From the UHGV virus genome UHGV-0075699: 19,854 bases of DNA. The stretch is one strand, 5' to 3'. The position numbers were made by a program, and so were the translations under genes. The notes beneath the pieces were generated by a model that made no database searches, was not told the origin of the DNA, and saw nothing but the letters and a program-made list of their open reading frames with translations. Source of the stretch: a virus. Positions 1 through 8,853 of the stretch are shown piece after piece. Each line of letters opens with the position of its first letter. The stretch's first letter is position 1.

Positions 1-558
1 GTCCTCATCGAATGCCGCCAGTTCGTCATATCCGGCAACATCAACCGATTTCTCACGATAGTTCTTTGCAGCCTTACCGCCGAGACACCAGAAACCGCGA
101 CCGTTAGAGAATCGCTTCATGCTGAGCGTGTTATTGCGGTGCTTTTTCCCATACCACGGCGCCAGCGCCAGCAGTGCGGGAATATCACGGATCGTCGGCT
201 CAACATGCGACTTCATGAAGTTTTCGGCATCGCCGTCGGTCGGCAGCCAGATGAGGGAATTTCGCTGCTTATGCTCAATAAAATAGGAATAGACGCCCAG
301 CAGCATCTTCGAGTAACCGACACGGGCAGATTTCACAACGTTCACTTCCCGTATGTAGTCATTCCCCATCGCATTCATTATTGCGCGCTGGAAAGGCAGC
401 GTGACCCAGCGCCCTTCCTGGTAAGCTGATTCTTTCGGCAAATAATAATTATTGTCTGCCCACTCCACTGCCGTTTGCGGCTCCGGGCGATAGAGTGAGC
501 GCAGCCCGGCGCGCGCGGATGACTGCAGCCCCTTAATCTGACTGTTCGATATATTCAC
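1..558 (-). CDS. A: Terminase large subunit (lambda gpA-like), N-terminal portion; CDS continues past window start
   Basis: Minus-strand translation from GTG at 558 reads VNISNSQIKGLQSSARAGLRSLYRPEPQTAVEWADNNYYLPKESAYQEGRW...DVAGYDELAAFDED, collinear with the recalled N-terminus of lambda gpA; the frame runs open to base 1. The plus-strand ORF 139..429 is antisense to it. Confidence 0.9.
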   Translation of the reverse strand, partial: MNISNSQIKGLQSSARAGLRSLYRPEPQTAVEWADNNYYLPKESAYQEGRWVTLPFQRAIMNAMGNDYIREVNVVKSARVGYSKMLLGVYSYFIEHKQRNSLIWLPTDGDAENFMKSHVEPTIRDIPALLALAPWYGKKHRNNTLSMKRFSNGRGFWCLGGKAAKNYREKSVDVAGYDELAAFDED

Positions 559-1078
559 TCAGCAACCCCGGTATAATTTCATCCAGCGCAGCTGCCTTGT
601 TCATGGCTTTGATTACGTCCTTTTTAAGGAAATCAATGTGTCGATTCTCCAGCTCAGGAAACCGCCGCTGCACCGACAGGGGGATCCCGTCCAGGATACT
701 GGCTATTTCGCCGGCCACGCGTGAAAGCACGAACGTGCAGAATGCGGTCTCCACCACCTCAGCGGAACTTTTGGCGTTTTTTAGCTCCTGGGCATCAGCC
801 TGCGAGCGGGTCAGACGGTAGCGCTCATAATCAATTGTTCCTGGCTGCAGATCAGATTCACCAGCCTTACGGAGCTCTTCAACTTCCTTTCTCAACTTTT
901 CGTTTTCGATGTCAGCATCACGTTGGGCAAACCACTTAATCACGGCAGCGGAATCGTAAAGAACCTCATTACCTTTGCCACCACCACGCACAAACGGCAT
1001 CCCCTGATCCTGCCAGTTCTGAATCGTACGAATGCTGACACCAAAAATATCGGAGAGCAGTTTTTTGTTCACCTCCAT
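533..1078 (-). CDS. nu1: Terminase small subunit (lambda Nu1-like)
   Basis: ORF-track protein MEVNKKLLSDIFGVSIRTIQNWQDQGMPFVRGGGKGNEVLYDSAAVIKW... (181 aa from the ATG at 1078) matches recalled lambda Nu1 in sequence and length. AGGAG Shine-Dalgarno lies 5 nt upstream; the 3' end overlaps the gpA start as in lambda. Confidence 0.9.
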   Translation of the reverse strand: MEVNKKLLSDIFGVSIRTIQNWQDQGMPFVRGGGKGNEVLYDSAAVIKWFAQRDADIENEKLRKEVEELRKAGESDLQPGTIDYERYRLTRSQADAQELKNAKSSAEVVETAFCTFVLSRVAGEIASILDGIPLSVQRRFPELENRHIDFLKKDVIKAMNKAAALDEIIPGLLSEYIEQSD

Positions 1079-1099
1079 ACGCACTCCTTAGGCGAAAAC

Positions 1100-1290
1100 G
1101 GGGTACGGAAACGATCATGGGTGATCCGGACAGGAAACGGTCTGATGGTTTCCTTTCTTTTCAGGCATCAACCAATTAATAAACAATGAGTTAAAAAGTA
1201 GAAGAACGGAAACGCCTTAAATCTCAAAATTTTCATATGTAGCGAGAATCCGCGAGGTCGCCGCCCCGTAATCACTCGAACTTCTGGAAA
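1100..1290 (-). other. cos site (cosN cohesive-end sequence plus cosB-like terminase-binding region), lambda-type
   Basis: Reverse complement of 1249-1270 reads ACGGGGCGGCGACCTCGCGG, followed by ...TATGAAAATTTT...TTTAAGGCGTTTCCGTTCTTCT...CTGAAAAGAAAGGAAAC..., nearly collinear with the recalled lambda left end (GGGCGGCGACCTCGCGGGTTTTCGCTATTTATGAAAATTTTCCGGTTTAAGGCGTTTCCGTTCTTCTTCG...CTGAAAAGAAAGGAAACGACAG). It sits immediately upstream of the Nu1 start. The 12-nt cohesive end maps to about 1255-1266. Confidence 0.75.
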
Positions 1291-1371
1291 GGACCCGTAA
1301 CGATAATGGTTATCATTAATGTTTGAATGGTCATTCATCGAGGCCGCTCATTGAACAGCCTCTGTGAATGC

Positions 1372-1791
1372 TCAGTCTGAGGACGCGCCGCCGTCAGCCT
1401 GCAGAACAGCTTCGGGAATGTGAGTTTCCAACGTCTCATTCTCGAATACCTTCAGACCATTGAAACCAATCCAGGTGGAGGACTGATTCACATTTCCCGC
1501 AATGAAGTCAGCAACGTCAGCCAACAGGCCACCAACCACTGCCTCTGTGTTCTGCCGCCAGTAGTTTTCGATAGCGACCAGCAGCGGATCAGAGCCGTTC
1601 TTTGTCATCTGTTCGCCTACTGAATAGGCCTTTTTCTTGGCTTTGTTGGTGACGCAAAGCAGCTGGCTGGTTTGCACTGCCACCGATTCAAGGTTATTCA
1701 CCTGCACCGTGATGGCGGCGACTTTATTACCGTCATTGTTGGTGCTCGACGCGTAGAACATCGAGATGGTCAGCTCATTACGGTTAAACAT
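1372..1791 (-). CDS. Hypothetical protein (139 aa), second gene of a coupled pair between lysis genes and cos
   Basis: Intact ORF whose ATG overlaps the stop of the upstream gene (ATAATG at 1789-1793), indicating translational coupling. No recognisable motif. Confidence 0.5.
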   Translation of the reverse strand: MFNRNELTISMFYASSTNNDGNKVAAITVQVNNLESVAVQTSQLLCVTNKAKKKAYSVGEQMTKNGSDPLLVAIENYWRQNTEAVVGGLLADVADFIAGNVNQSSTWIGFNGLKVFENETLETHIPEAVLQADGGASSD

Positions 1792-2117
1792 TATTGGCTC
1801 CGATGATTTCGATGGTTGCGGTTACGGCGTGAACGTTGCTTTTGGTTCTCCTCCTGAGGTAGGAGCTCACCCTCGCGCGCTGGTGGCTGCTCACTCACCC
1901 GAGCAGATGCGGGCGCTGCTGCTGCTGGTGCTGGTGCCTGTTTCGCTGGTGGTGTATATGGCTCGCCACCAGCTTCAATTTCGACCTTGAGATAAGGGGT
2001 CGTTTTCATGCTATGAGTGAAGTGAACCGTGCTGACAGGTAGGCCCATATAGGACTTGCCATCGCGTTCAAGGCTCACCAGCACCCCGTTAACGTATTCA
2101 ATTTTTAAACTCTGCAT
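1791..2117 (-). CDS. Hypothetical protein (108 aa) with Pro/Ala-rich linker and basic low-complexity C-terminus
   Basis: ORF with AAAGG-type RBS about 8 nt upstream of the ATG at 2117. Globular-looking N-terminal 55 aa followed by PPAKQAPAPAAAAPASA. Translationally coupled to 1372..1791. Confidence 0.45.
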   Translation of the reverse strand: MQSLKIEYVNGVLVSLERDGKSYMGLPVSTVHFTHSMKTTPYLKVEIEAGGEPYTPPAKQAPAPAAAAPASARVSEQPPAREGELLPQEENQKQRSRRNRNHRNHRSQ

Positions 2118-2135
2118 CGGGTTACCTTTTACGAA

Positions 2136-2160
2136 TAAAAAAGCCCCGCGTATGCGAGGC
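2136..2160 (-). terminator. Rho-independent terminator (minus-strand sense) upstream of the 2117 gene
   Basis: Minus-sense RNA forms GCCUCGC-AUAC-GCGGGGC (7-bp stem with one G-U pair) followed by UUUUUUAUU; plus coordinates 2143-2160 stem, 2136-2142 A-run. Confidence 0.5.
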
Positions 2161-2292
2161 TACTGGCTAAATATCAGGGTGTTACTGTGAAACCTCAGCG
2201 TGTAAGGTTACGGCTCAGCCCGTCCGTGGTGGGACACTGACGAACATGTAATGGCAGAGAACTGGCTGATTAGTTCTGCTTAAGGAAATGAG

Positions 2293-2754
2293 ATGGCAAT
2301 TAATTTACCAGTGTACTTTATGAACAGCAGCGGGGAATTTTCAACTACACCGCAACCAATGGCTGTACCCGTGATAGTTGTCACATTTGCAGCGGTTGAC
2401 AAAGATAATCATTATCAAATACCGAACCCCGAGAAACATGAATCAGCTATGGTTCTGATCGATACTGGTGCTACCGCCTGTTATATCGATAATGATTTTG
2501 CTGATGAATTAGAACTCCCAGTTACCAGCGAAATCCAAGTTCGGGGAGGAACTTCTACAATTAATTCAACAGCTCGCAGGGCGGTTATGAGCCTAACAAA
2601 CGACGGGCGCCTTTTTTCTCAAGAATTTCATGCAACCCCTTTAGTTAATAATGGGCGACACTTCAAAGCAATTCTTGGGATGGAGTTTCTTCAACACTGC
2701 TCATTCACGCTTGACTACAAAAATAACAAATTCGAGTTGTTGTTTAATAGTTAA
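2293..2754 (+). CDS. Retropepsin-like (clan AA) aspartic protease, moron gene
   Basis: Protein contains VLIDTGATACYID (D-T-G-A catalytic motif in hydrophobic context) and a C-terminal AILGMEFL motif resembling the retropepsin I-I-G-R-D-x-L element. AAGGAA RBS 5 nt upstream of ATG. Gene is visibly AT-richer than its flanks and opposite in orientation to the late operon. Confidence 0.65.
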   Translation: MAINLPVYFMNSSGEFSTTPQPMAVPVIVVTFAAVDKDNHYQIPNPEKHESAMVLIDTGATACYIDNDFADELELPVTSEIQVRGGTSTINSTARRAVMSLTNDGRLFSQEFHATPLVNNGRHFKAILGMEFLQHCSFTLDYKNNKFELLFNS

Positions 2755-2929
2755 GCCATGCCGGTAGAAATACTACTGTGGTTTCTGAGTGCGGCTCCCC
2801 CATCAGCGGCTTGCTATCACATGGTGCTTGCCGCTGTCCCCAGATATTAATCATTCTCAGATCTATAACCTCCACATCCTTGTTACATATTGCATCTTCC
2901 TGCATTTTAATGCACTGGGCTAAGGTCAT
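2744..2929 (-). CDS. Hypothetical small protein (61 aa), uncertain
   Basis: ORF with GAGGA RBS 4 nt upstream of ATG at 2929, just downstream of the Rz stop; no motif recognised. 3' end overlaps the convergent protease gene by 11 nt. Confidence 0.25.
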   Translation of the reverse strand: MTLAQCIKMQEDAICNKDVEVIDLRMINIWGQRQAPCDSKPLMGEPHSETTVVFLPAWLNY

Positions 2930-2968
2930 ATTGTCCTCGGTTATCCCCTAGTAGGGATTTTGATTATG

Positions 2969-3481
2969 TTATCCCTTAGCAGGGATAGAAGTTCTCACCG
3001 ATTTGTAAATCCGCTCACAGATCATTCCTGCGGTGTAGCGTTCGTCAGCGATTTCAGCATACCGTCGAGCTTCTTCTGCAAGGTCTCCAAGCATGTCGGC
3101 GAGCATTCCGGCGGTGGTGCCGGTTGTTTTGCTTCTGACGGTAGCGGCAAGACTTGTGGTGTGCTTTGCGGCGTCCAGGCGGGTGGCAAAGGCTTTTGCC
3201 TGCTGGCGCAGCTGGTTAACAGTGCCAGAGAGATTAGCAGCAGCAGCACGCGCTGCAGCGGTTTGAGCTTGAGCATCTTGTACGGCCTCATCGCGGGCGA
3301 TCAAGCGCCCCTGTTCAATCATCCGGGCGACGGTTTGCGCATTCACTGCCTGTGCCGATTCGTCAATATCACGTTGCAGCCATTTGGATTGCCACTGTGT
3401 ATCCTTCCAGAATGCACCTGCGCCAAATGCACCGGTGAGGATCAAACCAATCACAAAACCTTTTGCTTTAGCGCCCATCAT
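2969..3481 (-). CDS. Rz-like inner-membrane spanin (i-spanin)
   Basis: N-terminal TM segment ([18 protein letters not shown]) followed by an Ala/Gln-rich predicted coiled-coil periplasmic domain; located immediately after the lysozyme gene with overlapping start; a second gene is embedded in another frame. Start placed at the ATG at 3481 (ORF track begins at TTG 3484). Confidence 0.8.
3022..3276 (-). CDS. Rz1-like outer-membrane lipoprotein spanin (o-spanin), embedded in Rz
   Basis: Alternative-frame ORF wholly inside Rz; [23 protein letters not shown] has a signal peptide ending in a lipobox-like LLTSC, followed by a Pro-rich mature region ([18 protein letters not shown]). Classic embedded Rz/Rz1 architecture. 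Confidence 0.7.
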
Positions 3482-4364: not shown

Positions 4365-4772
4365 TTACCGGACAATTATTTCCATTTTTTGTCCTAGTAC
4401 CGATAGTGCTTTTTGAATGGTGTCGATCTTGGTGCTATGACCAAGAGACACGATTCGCTGTACCTCCTGAGGGCGCGTATTAATCATGCGGGCCAGTTCA
4501 GCGTTACTGGTATTGGTACTGACCAGGCGGTTTAGCAATAATACCTTCGCCGCCACGCTTGATGGCACTTCAACAAACGCCTCACCCTCTGCTGAAGGTG
4601 CGGGGATCTCCCGGCGGTCGTCAAAATAGAAATCAAACGCCGTAACCAGGGCATCCTGCGCCATTTCTAACGCTTCCTCCCTGGTTGCCCCTCCCGTCAT
4701 TGCCTCGGGGATATCTGGGAAAAATACCGCCCAGCCGGTTTCGTCATGCTCAAAATTTACCGGATATCTCAT
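4365..4772 (-). CDS. hicB: HicB antitoxin
   Basis: From the internal ATG at 4772 the protein reads MRYPVNFEHDETGWAVFFPDIPEAMTGGATREEALEMAQDALVTAFDFYFDD...LSVLGQKMEIIVR, matching the recalled E. coli HicB pattern (MRYPV...FVDIPEA...DAL.TAFDFYFED...). Directly downstream of hicA. Confidence 0.85.
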   Translation of the reverse strand: MRYPVNFEHDETGWAVFFPDIPEAMTGGATREEALEMAQDALVTAFDFYFDDRREIPAPSAEGEAFVEVPSSVAAKVLLLNRLVSTNTSNAELARMINTRPQEVQRIVSLGHSTKIDTIQKALSVLGQKMEIIVR

Positions 4773-4819
4773 ATTGATTAAGTGAATCTCCACGAGTACC
4801 AGCCCCGGAGGGCTGGTTT

Positions 4820-4996
4820 TTATTTGATACCGAGTTGCTTCAAAATTGCTTTTCTCAGCGGCTCCGGGATTTCCTTGCCCGGGTGTCTCGGCATTATCGT
4901 TTGCTTGCCGTTGAGGTAAATTTTTAAGTGGTTGGTACCATCTTTAAACTCTGCCCCTTGAGCTGCAAGCCAACGCCTGAACTCGCTTTGCTTCAC
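4820..4996 (-). CDS. hicA: HicA mRNA-interferase toxin
   Basis: 58-aa ORF (below the ORF-track size cutoff) found by manual translation: VKQSEFRRWLAAQGAEFKDGTNHLKIYLNGKQTIMPRHPGKEIPEPLRKAILKQLGIK, closely matching recalled E. coli HicA (MKQSEFRRWLESQG...NHLKL...MPRHP...EPLRKAILKQLGL). GTG start preceded by AGGAGGAGG. Confidence 0.85.
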   Translation of the reverse strand: MKQSEFRRWLAAQGAEFKDGTNHLKIYLNGKQTIMPRHPGKEIPEPLRKAILKQLGIK

Positions 4997-5026
4997 TCCT
5001 CCTCCTGTCTGTTTAACTTGAGATAA

Positions 5027-5080
5027 TAATAAACATTTTTGTTTATTAAATCAAGCTAAAATATAAACATTTTTGTTTAT
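5027..5080. promoter_or_regulatory. Two palindromic operator-like sites upstream of hicAB
   Basis: TAATAAACA-TTTT-TGTTTATTA (5027-5048, perfect 9-bp arms) and ATAAACA-TTTT-TGTTTAT (5063-5080), same core repeated about 35 bp apart, located between the late terminator and the hicA RBS. Confidence 0.5.
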
Positions 5081-5110
5081 CCAGAGAGAGGGAGAGTGCG
5101 AGATAAACCA

Positions 5111-5134
5111 ACAAAAAACCCCGCCGAAGCGAGG
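5111..5134 (-). terminator. Late-operon terminator (tR'-like) downstream of the late promoter
   Basis: Minus-sense RNA CCUCGC-UUCG-GCGGGG (6-bp stem, UUCG tetraloop) followed by UUUUUUGUUGG; plus coordinates 5119-5134 stem, 5113-5118 A-run. Confidence 0.6.
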
Positions 5135-5171
5135 TTATTTATAAAAATGGCAAGATATCAAATTACCTCAA

Positions 5172-5200
5172 AATATCGCTCATTTTGTTGCATTTTGCAA
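5172..5200 (-). promoter_or_regulatory. Candidate late promoter (pR'-like) immediately downstream of Q
   Basis: On the minus strand TTGCAA (-35, 5195-5200), 17-bp spacer, GATATT (-10, 5172-5177), about 25 nt after the Q stop and about 55 nt upstream of the terminator; the position is analogous to lambda pR'/qut. Confidence 0.4.
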
Positions 5201-5225: not shown

Positions 5226-5945
5226 TTAATCACATTTTTCCGTTCTGACCTCTTCTATTTGCTCATGATATGTGTAGATGTTCTGCAATGCGTTGTTATC
5301 CATCTCAATGAAAGCCGTTTTAAGTCGTTCCCAATGCCCGGCATAAACCCTTTTCCAGGTTGAGCGGTCAACTGAAACCATACGCGCCAGAGCTGCGCCA
5401 GCGTAGGTTTTATACGTCTCATTATTCCGGGTCGCTGCAACCTCCTGGCCAGCCAGCCAGACCAGCCCCACAAGCTTTTTTATTACTCTCGATTGGATCG
5501 CCCTGCCTACTTGATAGTTCTGATATTCAGTCCAGACGTGTTCACACATCAGCGTCTGGTAACGGAAATTTAGATCGAAGCCATAGCAATAGCGCACCCA
5601 TGCCTGGTGATGTTCTTCCAGCAGGTTTACAGCGCGCCTCCACGGTGAATAACCGAATTCAATATCATTGATGGGCGGCATTGGCCGGCGGCGGCTGCGG
5701 GTCTCCATCACATAAACTGGAGTAGTCAGTGCCTTAACCACCGACGGGCCACAACCAATCCCCCCTTCCAGATCGACAAGATTGCGAGAGCACCGCGGAT
5801 TTTTATTCTTATCTGCCGGTGGGTTCTCGCTGAATGCCTCGAGTTGTCCCTTTGTTGCGCCGGATAAATCCAACAACGCTCGACGCACTTCAATACGGGT
5901 ATATTCCAGGTTTTGTAGGTTCATACTGCTCAACGCTCCATACAC
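5226..5945 (-). CDS. Probable late antiterminator Q (Qin/82-type Phage_antitermQ-like)
   Basis: 239-aa ORF located exactly where Q sits in lambdoid phages (after the nin-region genes, directly before a promoter-terminator pair and the lysis cassette). Assignment rests mainly on position and size; start could be GTG 5945 or ATG 5924. Confidence 0.5.
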   Translation of the reverse strand: MYGALSSMNLQNLEYTRIEVRRALLDLSGATKGQLEAFSENPPADKNKNPRCSRNLVDLEGGIGCGPSVVKALTTPVYVMETRSRRRPMPPINDIEFGYSPWRRAVNLLEEHHQAWVRYCYGFDLNFRYQTLMCEHVWTEYQNYQVGRAIQSRVIKKLVGLVWLAGQEVAATRNNETYKTYAGAALARMVSVDRSTWKRVYAGHWERLKTAFIEMDNNALQNIYTYHEQIEEVRTEKCD

Positions 5946-7006
5946 TATGCTTTTATAATTGCGCCGATCGCCATAGCTCGATCAAGAAAACGGAACAGCA
6001 GCTCCAACTGCGTGCCATTCTTCTCTTCAAAGGCGTTAACATCGGCATGTAGCTCGTCGTGGCACTCTCTGCACAGAGGAAACACGAAGAGATCGTGGGC
6101 TTTGGTTGCGGTACCGCCCATGCCATGGCCGATGACATGATGCGGATCGTCAGCTGGTCTGCGGCAGCATTCGCATGGTTGATGCTTAACCCAGTCGGTA
6201 TAAGTCTTGCTTACCCAGCGACGGCGCTTTGGCCTGAGCATGAAAGATTCCGGCGATTCCGGATCGGCAGTCAGCGCAAGCCCCTTCGGCTGGTCCTGGT
6301 GCGCCTGGACATTTTCGTTGCGCCTGCATTGCCTTGCTGTGCCTGCAGCTGGCAGTTTCTCCTGCAGAATGCTGGTGGCCGGTAAAGTAGGCCGGATATC
6401 GCTTTCTTTATACACCGACAGGAACGGCTCTTCAGGCAACCCTAGACCACGCTGCGCCATCGTCTCCGTAATGGCATCGGCTATACCTGACTGAACTGCC
6501 CACCAGCACAACTCTGCGATTGAAAGAGAGCGTTCTTTGTTATAACCGAGCCCGATCAGCACAGTATCTATTACCCAGTCGACTACATTACGAAGTGCCA
6601 GCGCCTCGATAGCTGGAGTCGACTGCTCCCGCAGTTTATTGTCACAATGCCAGCACACCAGCAACGCACCAGGCGGATGTCGCATCGTTACCATCTCGTT
6701 ATGGTGGTACTCGGAATGAGGGTACTGGCACCTCTTCAGCCGGAGAAACAGCCACCGTTCAAGCGCTGGCAATCCACCAGCAGCACGAATCACACGCTCA
6801 TCGGAAAAGAATACGTGCAGGCTGGAATCCTCCGCTAAAGGTTGTCGGGCATCAGGGACACGACCAGATGGCAAGCGGGCCATATTTTGTGGTTCAGCCT
6901 CGACTAAAACACGCCCGGCAGAAAACAGGTGCATCAGATCACGGCCGGGCTTAAATAGAACCACGCCGAGGCGTGGCACAATCTCAGGGGTGAGTAACGC
7001 TCTCAT
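5945..7006 (-). CDS. Cys/His-rich nin-region protein, DUF968-like with HNH-like metal-binding C-terminus
   Basis: C-terminal region HQPCECCRRPADDPHHVIGHGMGG...FPLCRECHDELH has paired CxxC and His clusters typical of HNH/zinc-binding nucleases; a second Cys cluster (LLVCWHCDNK) lies mid-protein. Start overlaps the MTase stop. Confidence 0.45.
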   Translation of the reverse strand: MRALLTPEIVPRLGVVLFKPGRDLMHLFSAGRVLVEAEPQNMARLPSGRVPDARQPLAEDSSLHVFFSDERVIRAAGGLPALERWLFLRLKRCQYPHSEYHHNEMVTMRHPPGALLVCWHCDNKLREQSTPAIEALALRNVVDWVIDTVLIGLGYNKERSLSIAELCWWAVQSGIADAITETMAQRGLGLPEEPFLSVYKESDIRPTLPATSILQEKLPAAGTARQCRRNENVQAHQDQPKGLALTADPESPESFMLRPKRRRWVSKTYTDWVKHQPCECCRRPADDPHHVIGHGMGGTATKAHDLFVFPLCRECHDELHADVNAFEEKNGTQLELLFRFLDRAMAIGAIIKA

Positions 7007-8853
7007 GCAACCTCACGCCGACCAGAAACACAAATTTCAGGAAGGTTTGCTCTTACAATCGCCTCAGCAAAGGGCGGCGGCACGGCGTTTCCGCACCTGG
7101 CGACTTGTTTCTCTTTCGAGTACCTCTTGCCGCGGTAGTCACGATCAATGATGTACCAGTCAGGGAATCCCTGAGCGCGGTAAAGTTCATGCGGCTGCAG
7201 CATGCGCATTCCGATATCAACAATGCGGTAAACAATACCCTTAATCGTCACCAGTTCGCTGACGCCAAAAGAATTCAGGAACTCTTTGACCTGATCCGCC
7301 CGGCGCTCGTCGTAATCATTAGCCGCCAGCAGCGCGCGAACCTCTCCAACATGCTGACCTCCAGCGGTGATTGTCGGCATTGGTTCACTGGTGCGCTGGC
7401 CATCGCGGCAGGTACCGCGCAGTTTAACCAGATGAGACGTAACCAGCGCATGGTGATCGACTGTGGTAACTGAGTGTGCAGGATCGTCCAGTCCGACGCC
7501 CGGGCCGGTATAGTTCCCGCCGTAGTGTTTCGCCAAAAACGCAGTTGTTACGGCAAATTTATTGCCACCAGCTACAACTGTTCCCAGCGGTTTACGCAGA
7601 TTTAGAACGCGCGGCGACTGCCCTACACGTTCGCCATACCCCATCTGAATAAGTGTGGCCGCGACAAGCTGTGACTTCCCCCCGCCGCCAGCGGTAATTG
7701 TTGCGCTGGGTTCATCCGCCCGGTGGCCGATGCTGGCGCCGAACTGACGCGCGATAACTGGCGCAACCAGGCAGGAGCGAGACTGTTTAAGGATGGTATG
7801 AGCGGGTTTATTCAATGGCCGCGGTTTCGCCTGGTACTCGCTACCCCCATTACCTGCCAGGAATGGAACCAACGTCGGTAACGCCAGCGCATAACCGTGG
7901 GTTTTGGTGATGGTTTGCAGGGGATCGGCCAGCGACTGTCCGCGGAAGCAATCATATTTACCGCGTGTTGTGGTGTGGTTGCATTTGACGATGAACGGAT
8001 TATCACTTTCGACGACAAACCGCTGGATGCCGCGCGCTATCCGTTTCAACGTGTTAATGGCCAGCGGCTTTTTACGGTCAAATATCGATGGTGCAGGAAT
8101 AGACCAGTCGATACACTCAGCAGCTGTCCGCCATGGTGCCAAATTTCCGGATTTAACTGCTGCGGATTTAGGGTCACCGTGAGTGACTCCCGGCCAGGCA
8201 ATGGGTTTATCGTCACAACGCATCAACATGAAGAATCGCTTGCGGATCGTCGGAGCACCATAATCACTGGCACGCAGTTCGCGATATTCGACCTTATACC
8301 CGAGGCCAGCAATCAGTCGTTTGGCTTGTTTGCCATCCGAGGATATGCCGAGAAATTCGCAACATTCGTACAGAGCCGGGTGATCCGCAGGTATACCAGT
8401 GGAAAGCATTCCAACAAATGCCAGGAAGGTTTCACCAGAACGCTTAGGATCAGGACGCATCTCACATGAAAGCAGCGGGCCCCACGTTTTAAATTCTTCA
8501 ACATTTTCGAGAGCCATTACACGAGGGCGAACATCCAATGCCCAGCGAACAGATACCCAAGCCAGGCCACGAATCTCACGTTTTACCGGTTTACTGCCGC
8601 GCGCCTTTGAATAGTGGGTACAATCCGGGCTGAACCATGCAAACCAGACAGCCTTTCCACCTGTCGCAGCGACAGGGTCAACGTCAAAGACGTTTTCACA
8701 ATAATGAAGCGTGTCCGGGTGATTCGTCCGGTGCATGGCCACGGCGTTTTCGTCGTGGTTAATGGCAATATCAACGCTGCGGCCGATCGCCATTTCTATC
8801 CCGGTAGATGCCCCACCACCGCCAGCAAAATTATCAACAATCAGCTCACGCAT
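7003..8853 (-). CDS. DNA (cytosine-5)-methyltransferase with large variable/target-recognition region
   Basis: Motif I DNFAGGGGAS (AdoMet binding), motif IV SPDCTHYS (catalytic Pro-Cys), motif VI ENV, C-terminal CGNAVPPP (motif X). About 400 aa lie between motif VI and the C-terminal motifs. Confidence 0.85.
   Translation of the reverse strand: MRELIVDNFAGGGGASTGIEMAIGRSVDIAINHDENAVAMHRTNHPDTLHYCENVFDVDPVAATGGKAVWFAWFSPDCTHYSKARGSKPVKREIRGLAWVSVRWALDVRPRVMALENVEEFKTWGPLLSCEMRPDPKRSGETFLAFVGMLSTGIPADHPALYECCEFLGISSDGKQAKRLIAGLGYKVEYRELRASDYGAPTIRKRFFMLMRCDDKPIAWPGVTHGDPKSAAVKSGNLAPWRTAAECIDWSIPAPSIFDRKKPLAINTLKRIARGIQRFVVESDNPFIVKCNHTTTRGKYDCFRGQSLADPLQTITKTHGYALALPTLVPFLAGNGGSEYQAKPRPLNKPAHTILKQSRSCLVAPVIARQFGASIGHRADEPSATITAGGGGKSQLVAATLIQMGYGERVGQSPRVLNLRKPLGTVVAGGNKFAVTTAFLAKHYGGNYTGPGVGLDDPAHSVTTVDHHALVTSHLVKLRGTCRDGQRTSEPMPTITAGGQHVGEVRALLAANDYDERRADQVKEFLNSFGVSELVTIKGIVYRIVDIGMRMLQPHELYRAQGFPDWYIIDRDYRGKRYSKEKQVARCGNAVPPPFAEAIVRANLPEICVSGRREVA

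Follow-up and report, generated by a model that had tools for sequence, protein, structure and literature searches.

The late genes of phage lambda are transcribed from pR′ by RNA polymerase modified by Q, which ignores intrinsic terminators, and the interval between Rz and cos in lambda includes bor, located on the opposite strand. The virus genome UHGV-0075699, analyzed here as a whole stretch of 19,854 nucleotides (nt) that will be referred to as the window, is a lambdoid prophage that carries, between its lysis cassette and its cos region, two minus-strand open reading frames (ORFs) named ORF-A and ORF-B. The window resembles the lambda late operon in that it has a Q-family gene, a pR′-like promoter, tR′, a lysis cassette followed by cos and Nu1 on a single strand, and internal terminators that would be overridden. 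Lambda, however, lacks ORF-A and ORF-B, and the window differs from it by the presence of hicAB between tR′ and the holin gene and of a retropepsin-like gene in a bor-like position.

The closest described relatives of the pair are genes of the Klebsiella phage phiKO2 (Gp61/Gp62) and of NAR688, ST846-OXA48phi9.1 and KpLi5, whose products share 37-42% identity with ORF-A and 59-65% with ORF-B. They are found in the same order, just before the chromosome end or the small terminase gene, and were still annotated as hypothetical in 2025. These phiKO2-type pairs are coupled to an upstream HNH gene, precede a HK97/P27-type terminase and have no upstream terminator, whereas the window has a lambda-type Nu1 and a terminator in place of the HNH gene. 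A less similar gene, that of the SSU5 gp114/pHCM2 type (phrog_2473), codes for a protein of the same size as ORF-B with the same motifs and 30-42% identity over more than 90% of its length; unlike ORF-B it has no ORF-A partner, and it is part of a small-gene operon near repressor-like and helicase genes instead of preceding cos. A search of the literature for functional data on PHROG 4567 and 2473 or on phiKO2 gp61/gp62 found none. Another point of comparison is the moron, which according to the definition of Hendrix and Juhala is an additional gene that has a promoter of its own and a terminator downstream and is expressed from the prophage. What the pair has in common with lambdoid morons is that it is a dispensable, mosaic addition located where two modules meet, and that close relatives of the flanking modules lack it. 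It differs from them in having no promoter of its own, a terminator that is upstream, the late orientation, and no trace in the lysogen proteome of a related phage. The moron reading of the pair was rejected because no sigma-70-like site is predicted in the 24-nt gap ahead of ORF-A.

We consider that ORF-A and ORF-B constitute a conserved two-gene accessory cassette within a Q-dependent late operon, insulated by a second terminator and acting as an A-B pair, a reading to which we assign a probability of about 0.6. The features of the cassette are the following:

1791-2117, minus strand: ORF-A, 108 amino acids (aa), matching phrog_4567.
1372-1791, minus strand: ORF-B, 139 aa, matching phrog_2473.
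2124-2128, minus strand: Shine-Dalgarno sequence of ORF-A (AAGGT), 6-7 nt 5′ of the ATG, read from the sequence.
1798-1801, minus strand: Shine-Dalgarno sequence of ORF-B (GGAG), 6 nt 5′ of the ATG, within the last codons of ORF-A.
2142-2161, minus strand: stem-loop of an intrinsic terminator, AGCCTCGC-ATAC-GCGGGGCT, identified by a terminator scan, the minimum-free-energy fold and conservation.
2132-2141, minus strand: T tract of the terminator, TTTTTATTCG, identified from the sequence and the terminator scan.

An earlier note on this DNA had described two minus-strand ORFs of these lengths and positions that overlap by one base (TAATG), and the sequence and the ORF list agree with it. Base 1791 is shared by the TAA stop codon of ORF-A (1793-1791) and the ATG of ORF-B (1791-1789), the junction reading CGG AGC CAA TAA TG. 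The Pro/Ala-rich linker and the basic tail (RSRRNRNHRNHRSQ) that the note attributed to the first protein are both present in the ORF-A translation, and the location of the pair between the lysis cassette and cos was correctly recognized, as the holin, lysozyme and Rz genes occupy 4329-2969, a cos-like region is found at about 1148-1316 and Nu1 at 533-1084.

Judged from sequence comparison, ORF-A and ORF-B are genuine, conserved phage genes. This conclusion follows from their PHROG matches, from the purifying selection acting on them, from the confidently predicted fold of ORF-B and from the existence of homologues in many genomes. ORF-A matched PHROG 4567 (E 1e-31, residues 1-106 of 108) and ORF-B matched PHROG 2473 (E 1.1e-59, residues 1-137 of 139), both of which are groups of unknown function. 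The pairwise ratios of nonsynonymous to synonymous substitution rates (dN/dS) were 0.14 for ORF-B, 0.28 for the N-terminal domain of ORF-A and 0.46 for its linker and tail. A large protein database included 83 relatives of ORF-B and 19 of ORF-A, and a profile of the A domain added 53. The ORF-A homologues were 90-112 aa long, and no relative of the A domain fell outside a range of 40-110 aa. The best matches to both proteins came from Raoultella terrigena (98-99% identity); the relatives with a named source belonged to Klebsiella, Raoultella, Pluralibacter and Shimwellia, and every one of them was annotated as hypothetical. An exhaustive profile search of 1.8 billion representatives yielded only 51 ORF-B clusters at 50% identity, and as a sequence family ORF-B is compact. 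Near-identical DNA, looked for by megablast, was almost absent from the phage collection and was not found among E. coli genomes.

The 89 loci of the synteny set were drawn from 3 annotated phages, 80 viral contigs and 6 genomes, and the counts of junctions and flanks given below are over 89, namely 88 paired loci plus the window. ORF-A is located directly 5′ of ORF-B on the same strand in 88 of the 89 loci, which rules out the possibility, considered in the earlier note, that these are spurious ORFs lacking conservation, and answers its question of whether the pair travels together in related prophages. The junction is a one-base TAATG or TGATG overlap in 76 cases, a longer overlap (-8 to -17) in 10 and a 2-nt gap in 3, so that a stop/start overlap is kept in 86 of 89. 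An embedded GGAG is found 6-8 nt 5′ of the ORF-B start in every junction, and its distance is the same in 30 distinct loci. Since the overlapping junctions and the embedded GGAG are kept across loci, translational coupling between A and B can be considered a conserved property.

Upstream of the pair the loci are of different kinds. In 57 of the 89 a gene coding for a HNH endonuclease overlaps the start of A by 4 nt (ATGA), forming an HNH-A-B trio that precedes a P27/HK97-type terminase, as exemplified by phiKO2 Gp60-61-62 and ST846-OXA48phi9.1. The HNH gene is absent from the window and 30 other loci. In 19 of these loci and the window a hairpin followed by a T tract is located 22-25 nt 5′ of A, and the terminases that come next are of the lambda Nu1/A type.

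In the window this hairpin (2161-2142) consists of 8 pairs, 6 of them G-C, with a 4-nt loop and the tail TTTTT(T)ATT, and it forms in the minimum-free-energy fold. The region 1000-3100 contains 7 terminator-like sites, compared to 2.1 +/- 1.5 in shuffled sequences, and the hairpin is the strongest of them. The 24 nt that separate the end of the stem (2142) from the ORF-A ATG (2117) hold the T tract and the AAGGT Shine-Dalgarno sequence, the latter being part of an AAGGTA that is conserved in the alignment of loci upstream of ORF-A; a promoter scan between the hairpin and the ATG predicted no sigma-70-like promoter. The claim that an intrinsic terminator precedes the pair and leaves no room for a promoter therefore held. 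The figure of about 20 nt from the terminator to the ribosome binding site was slightly generous, the distance being about 13 nt to the Shine-Dalgarno sequence and 24 nt to the ATG, but the point about the space for a promoter is unaffected. When 16 distinct copies of the hairpin were aligned, 95.2% of the cells were paired, as opposed to 34-60% in slid controls, and two stem pairs showed compensatory changes; the loop varies, the T tract after the stem is uninterrupted in nearly all copies, and the copy in locus L016 is degraded. Sequence similarity between loci starts at the hairpin in this alignment. Where nothing has been inserted the hairpin is found within about 50-80 nt of Rz (L018, L025, L029). 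The window belongs with several loci in which opposite-strand cargo genes of different kinds have been inserted between Rz and the hairpin. No Rfam family was found in the window, which indicates that no known small RNA ends in the hairpin.

Directly 5′ of the terminator, at 2162-2192 on the minus strand, there is an element of about 30 nt, CAGTAACACCCTGATATTTA(A/G)CCAGT, which is kept in loci where differing opposite-strand cargo separates Rz from the terminator and is missing from those in which Rz directly adjoins it. The element could be an outward promoter common to these loci or the recombination joint of an insertion hotspot. A palindrome, ATCCCCTAGTAGGGAT, is located at 2943-2958, just past the Rz stop codon; related palindromes are found after Rz in L018, L025, L029, L035 and L038, where they adjoin the late terminator, and in the window the inserted protease gene separates the Rz palindrome from the late-terminator hairpin. 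On the plus strand this palindrome may be the terminator of the protease gene.

The features that surround the pair in the window and define its late-operon context are:

5226-5945, minus strand: Q antiterminator gene (PF06323, E 3.9e-35).
5117-5200, minus strand: pR′-like promoter TTGCAA-17-GATATT and tR′ hairpin (5136-5117, with T tract), 3′ of the Q gene.
4365-4996, minus strand: hicA/hicB toxin-antitoxin pair, inserted 3′ of tR′ and 5′ of the holin gene; a promoter-like site of its own is located at 5054-5026.
4329-2969, minus strand: genes for a holin (P21 type), a lysozyme and Rz (DUF2514) with embedded Rz1.
1148-1316, minus strand: lambda-type cos region directly 3′ of ORF-B, about 80% identical to lambda, HK629/630 and DE3.
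533-1084, minus strand: Nu1 small terminase subunit (PF07471, E 1.4e-94).

The minus-strand order is thus Q, pR′/tR′, hicAB, holin, lysozyme, Rz/Rz1, terminator, A, B, cos and Nu1. The phage DE3 counterpart of the region at about 1148-1316 is annotated as 'cos site', and GGGCGGCGACCT can be read at about 1266-1255.

The earlier note had proposed that expression of the pair depends on read-through of the terminator. This proposal is supported by the context, given the presence of Q, the pR′-tR′ arrangement, a single strand down to Nu1 and no predicted promoter after the hairpin, but such a dependence would not be a peculiarity of the pair. Beyond ORF-A and ORF-B, the terminator at 2161-2142 precedes cos, Nu1 and the whole head and tail operon, and because the terminase and head genes lie downstream of it the phage must read through the hairpin. 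Read-through is a requirement of the whole phage and corresponds to the textbook design of lambdoid late operons. In 57 of the 89 loci there is no terminator before A, and the HNH gene is translationally coupled to A instead. An arrangement similar to that of the window was found in an unrelated AT-rich lambdoid lineage, in which B is present alone, 3′ of tR′ and a second terminator, with no promoter, and about 50 nt before the holin gene in 61 loci. Separately, a study of a lysogen of the telomere phage NAR688 detected nine phage proteins in its proteome, and none of the four hypothetical proteins encoded next to the small terminase gene was among them (PMC12042878). NAR688 carries an ORF-B homologue. 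The arrangement in the AT-rich lineage and the NAR688 lysogen proteome agree with expression restricted to the late stage.

In 18 of 83 loci of the Proteus-like prophages, an AT-rich gene coding for a membrane protein is located between tR′ and the ORF-B homologue. The copy in L093 (5321-5842, plus strand) has its own promoter-like site and terminator and is a typical moron.

In the scheme that we favor, the pair would have no promoter of its own and would be transcribed within a single late operon from pR′, downstream of Q. Only Q-modified, terminator-resistant polymerase would pass both tR′ and the second terminator at 2161-2142, which would act as an insulator by halting polymerase that has not been modified by Q, for example that coming from the hicAB promoter, before it reaches ORF-A and ORF-B, cos, and the terminase and head genes. 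ORF-B would be translated by re-initiation at TAATG or from the GGAG inside ORF-A, resulting in co-expression of both proteins. The two genes, a cassette of temperate enterobacterial phages, are the last coding unit at the right end of the virion chromosome before cos, and circularization places them midway along the late transcription unit. The steps that concern the operon, the terminator and the coupling rest on sequence and comparative evidence, and those that concern the role of the proteins we infer.

The AlphaFold2 (AF2) model of ORF-A consists of a four-stranded beta domain (residues 4-49) with a predicted local distance difference test score (pLDDT) of ~85, the remainder of the protein being disordered. 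Alignment of 46 variants showed conservation of the beta domain (LKIEY..G.L, HF.H), of a GE(L/H)(L/V/M/I) motif and of an Arg-rich C-terminus. The GE(L/H)(L/V/M/I) motif, here EGELL at residues 82-86, is invariant within an otherwise variable Pro/Ala/Glu/Gln linker. ORF-B is an acidic alpha/beta protein formed by a 4-strand meander, two helices, a strand and a helix (AF2 pLDDT 87, predicted template modeling score 0.81) with the invariant motif GSDPLL..E..WR, and no membrane segment or signal sequence was found in its sequence or model. The view of the earlier note that neither protein belongs to a recognizable family, and that the genes are in that sense unknown, was upheld by profile searches and structure prediction: searches of Pfam, NCBIfam and PADLOC returned no family for either protein at E <= 1, diverse family members gave only scattered single matches and no consistent family at E <= 10, and comparison with the PDB and with viral structures found no counterpart for the confidently predicted fold of ORF-B, so that no curated family or solved structure matches either one. 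Two single-protein scans gave no distant relatives of ORF-B, and no stretch is conserved enough among distant relatives for an alignment-based locus search.

Two candidate identities were rejected. A match between the first 47 residues of ORF-A and the cytidine deaminase EfCDA (PDB 8x6u, E 0.004) involved the non-catalytic N-terminus, did not cover the zinc-binding catalytic motifs, and was considered due to chance since it disappeared when a broader profile of the A domain was used. Apparent domain fusions, i.e., longer 'homologues' of 167-221 aa, turned out to be out-of-frame read-through tails.

The pair can be regarded as accessory and mobile and not as part of the core packaging machinery, because it is found with three terminase types, because relatives with a lambda-type cos lack B, and because B exists elsewhere without A. 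A lambda-type cos segment is shared by 98 phage records; only 24 records hold B, nearly all of them from other phage groups. A hidden Markov model search identified 83 loci of other lineages that have B and no A-like gene, and B without A was also found in 933 plasmid records, mostly SSU5-like phage-plasmids of ~110 kb and linear prophages of ~52 kb. In the SSU5-like phage-plasmid records that were inspected, the operon that includes B is made up of small unknown genes and has repressor-like and helicase genes nearby. As for function, A and B might act together in the cytoplasm late in infection, possibly as a complex. ORF-A would serve as an adaptor: its small beta domain is followed by a flexible linker, the conserved GELL motif would be used for docking, and the Arg-rich tail could contact nucleic acid or the acidic ORF-B. 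ORF-B would be the functional globular partner, or effector. The role of the pair could be a late interaction with the host, such as counter-defense, or the modulation of lysis or of packaging, no single one of these being more than a tentative guess.

Several observations weigh against the reading of the pair as an insulated accessory cassette. The identities of the A types and B types correlate poorly between loci, which indicates that A and B can be recombined; no homology or fold match backs any biochemical activity of either protein; read-through and insulation at 2161-2142 are drawn from lambda biology by analogy; and the absence from the lysogen proteome is weak evidence. Two more are at the same time arguments for the main rival, a role of A and B as accessory factors of DNA packaging at cos, where they would help terminase or HNH cleavage or the termination of packaging, with the A tail binding DNA. 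In each of the 89 Klebsiella-group loci, without exception, cos and the small terminase gene come right after the pair, and in 57 of them the ATGA overlap couples it to a gene associated with packaging, HNH genes adjoining cos and terminase being known packaging components (PMC3592412). The basic tail of ORF-A would also suit such a role. The association is nevertheless with three unrelated terminase types (lambda Nu1/A, P27/HK97-type and phiKO2-type), without evident covariation between the pair and the terminase; lambda-type phages that share the cos/Nu1 module lack the pair; B alone is found far from terminase genes, either near holin genes or in the SSU5-like small-gene operons; and N15-like relatives outside the phiKO2 group are not among the B matches. 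We therefore regard a packaging role as improbable, although it deserves to be kept in mind. A different function within the same late region, that of a lysis-stage accessory such as a regulator of lysis timing, exerted by ORF-B with or without A, has in its favor that B is 0-2 genes away from the lysis cassette in both lambdoid lineages, right after Rz/Rz1 in the window, L018, L025 and L029, and immediately upstream of the holin gene in the 61 Proteus-like loci mentioned above. This proximity is confounded by the fact that lysis and packaging modules neighbor each other, and the lack of a membrane segment or signal sequence in B together with its location near repressor and helicase genes, and not lysis genes, in SSU5-like phage-plasmids make this function quite doubtful.

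Two small genes in this order, joined by a stop/start overlap, are reminiscent of type II toxin-antitoxin loci, with A as the antitoxin and B as the toxin, and a folded N-terminal domain followed by a disordered tail with a short motif recalls antitoxins of the MazE/AbrB type. Identity of ORF-A with AbrB/MazE antitoxins was rejected, however, since comparison of the A domain with the N-terminal domains of AbrB, MazE and Kis gave a hhalign probability of 1.7%. Furthermore, the pair has no promoter of its own and a terminator is located 24 nt upstream, no Pfam toxin or antitoxin family was matched even at E <= 10, B is widespread without A, and the pair is confined to one late-operon position when scattered contexts would be expected of such modules, all of which makes a toxin-antitoxin system very improbable indeed. 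With respect to the hairpin at 2161-2142, its main function could be that of an mRNA end or processing element, either stabilizing the lysis transcript at its 3′ end or protecting the A-B-terminase message as a 5′ stem. The location of the hairpin directly after Rz where nothing is inserted, its fixed distance of 22-25 nt to the ORF-A ATG and the conservation of the stem with a variable loop would be compatible with this function. The T tract, uninterrupted in nearly all copies, is on the other hand the signature of intrinsic termination, and the stem core CCTCGC/GCGGGG is the same as that of tR′ of this phage. We think it rather unlikely that this is the main function, but the terminator and mRNA-element roles are compatible with each other.

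Other characteristics of the window are worth recording. The tR′ hairpin, AACCTCGC-TTCG-GCGGGGTT, is near-identical to one within 5019-5109 of the otherwise unrelated AT-rich prophage L093. No minus-strand terminator was predicted in the interval between hicB and the holin gene, a fact that bears on the silence of the lysis genes in the lysogen. The gene located between Rz and the terminator (2293-2754, plus strand) codes for a retropepsin-like aspartyl protease (PF13975/PF13650), and the same protein cluster is found at the same site in L016, L026, L084 and L089. This gene looks like a classic moron and fits the definition much better than ORF-A and ORF-B; it showed weak matches to the PADLOC candidate defense protein PDC-M08B and may be a defense gene. 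A 56-aa ORF on the minus strand (1168-1338) that overlaps the lambda-like cosN/cosB and has no family match is most likely not a gene. The region 5′ of Q (5945-8853, minus strand) codes for a DUF968/HNHc-like protein (353 aa) and for a larger one of 616 aa that carries a C-5 cytosine DNA methylase domain, and both genes have the orientation of the late and nin regions.

An internal terminator overridden by Q is a textbook feature, and its presence before ORF-A confirms a known logic of expression. The value of the finding resides in the proteins. Nothing at present points to a specific new mechanism, and that ORF-B defines a new, widespread family of phage effectors for which ORF-A was recruited as an adaptor in the Klebsiella group, the two serving an undescribed function late in infection, is a speculative and rather unlikely proposition. 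If it were true, the pair could, for instance, neutralize a host defense that senses terminase or packaging, or protect the cos-proximal DNA end. ORF-B is very widely carried, by about 900 enterobacterial phage-plasmids and by many lambdoid, HK97-like and N15-like prophages, clinically common Klebsiella elements included; it has no annotation and no relative of recognizable fold, and is under strong purifying selection. ORF-A is unusual in combining a small domain with a linker, a short motif and a tail rich in Arg. Once a function is known for the two proteins, thousands of genes now called 'hypothetical' could be annotated, and a new late-stage interaction between phage and host might come to light.

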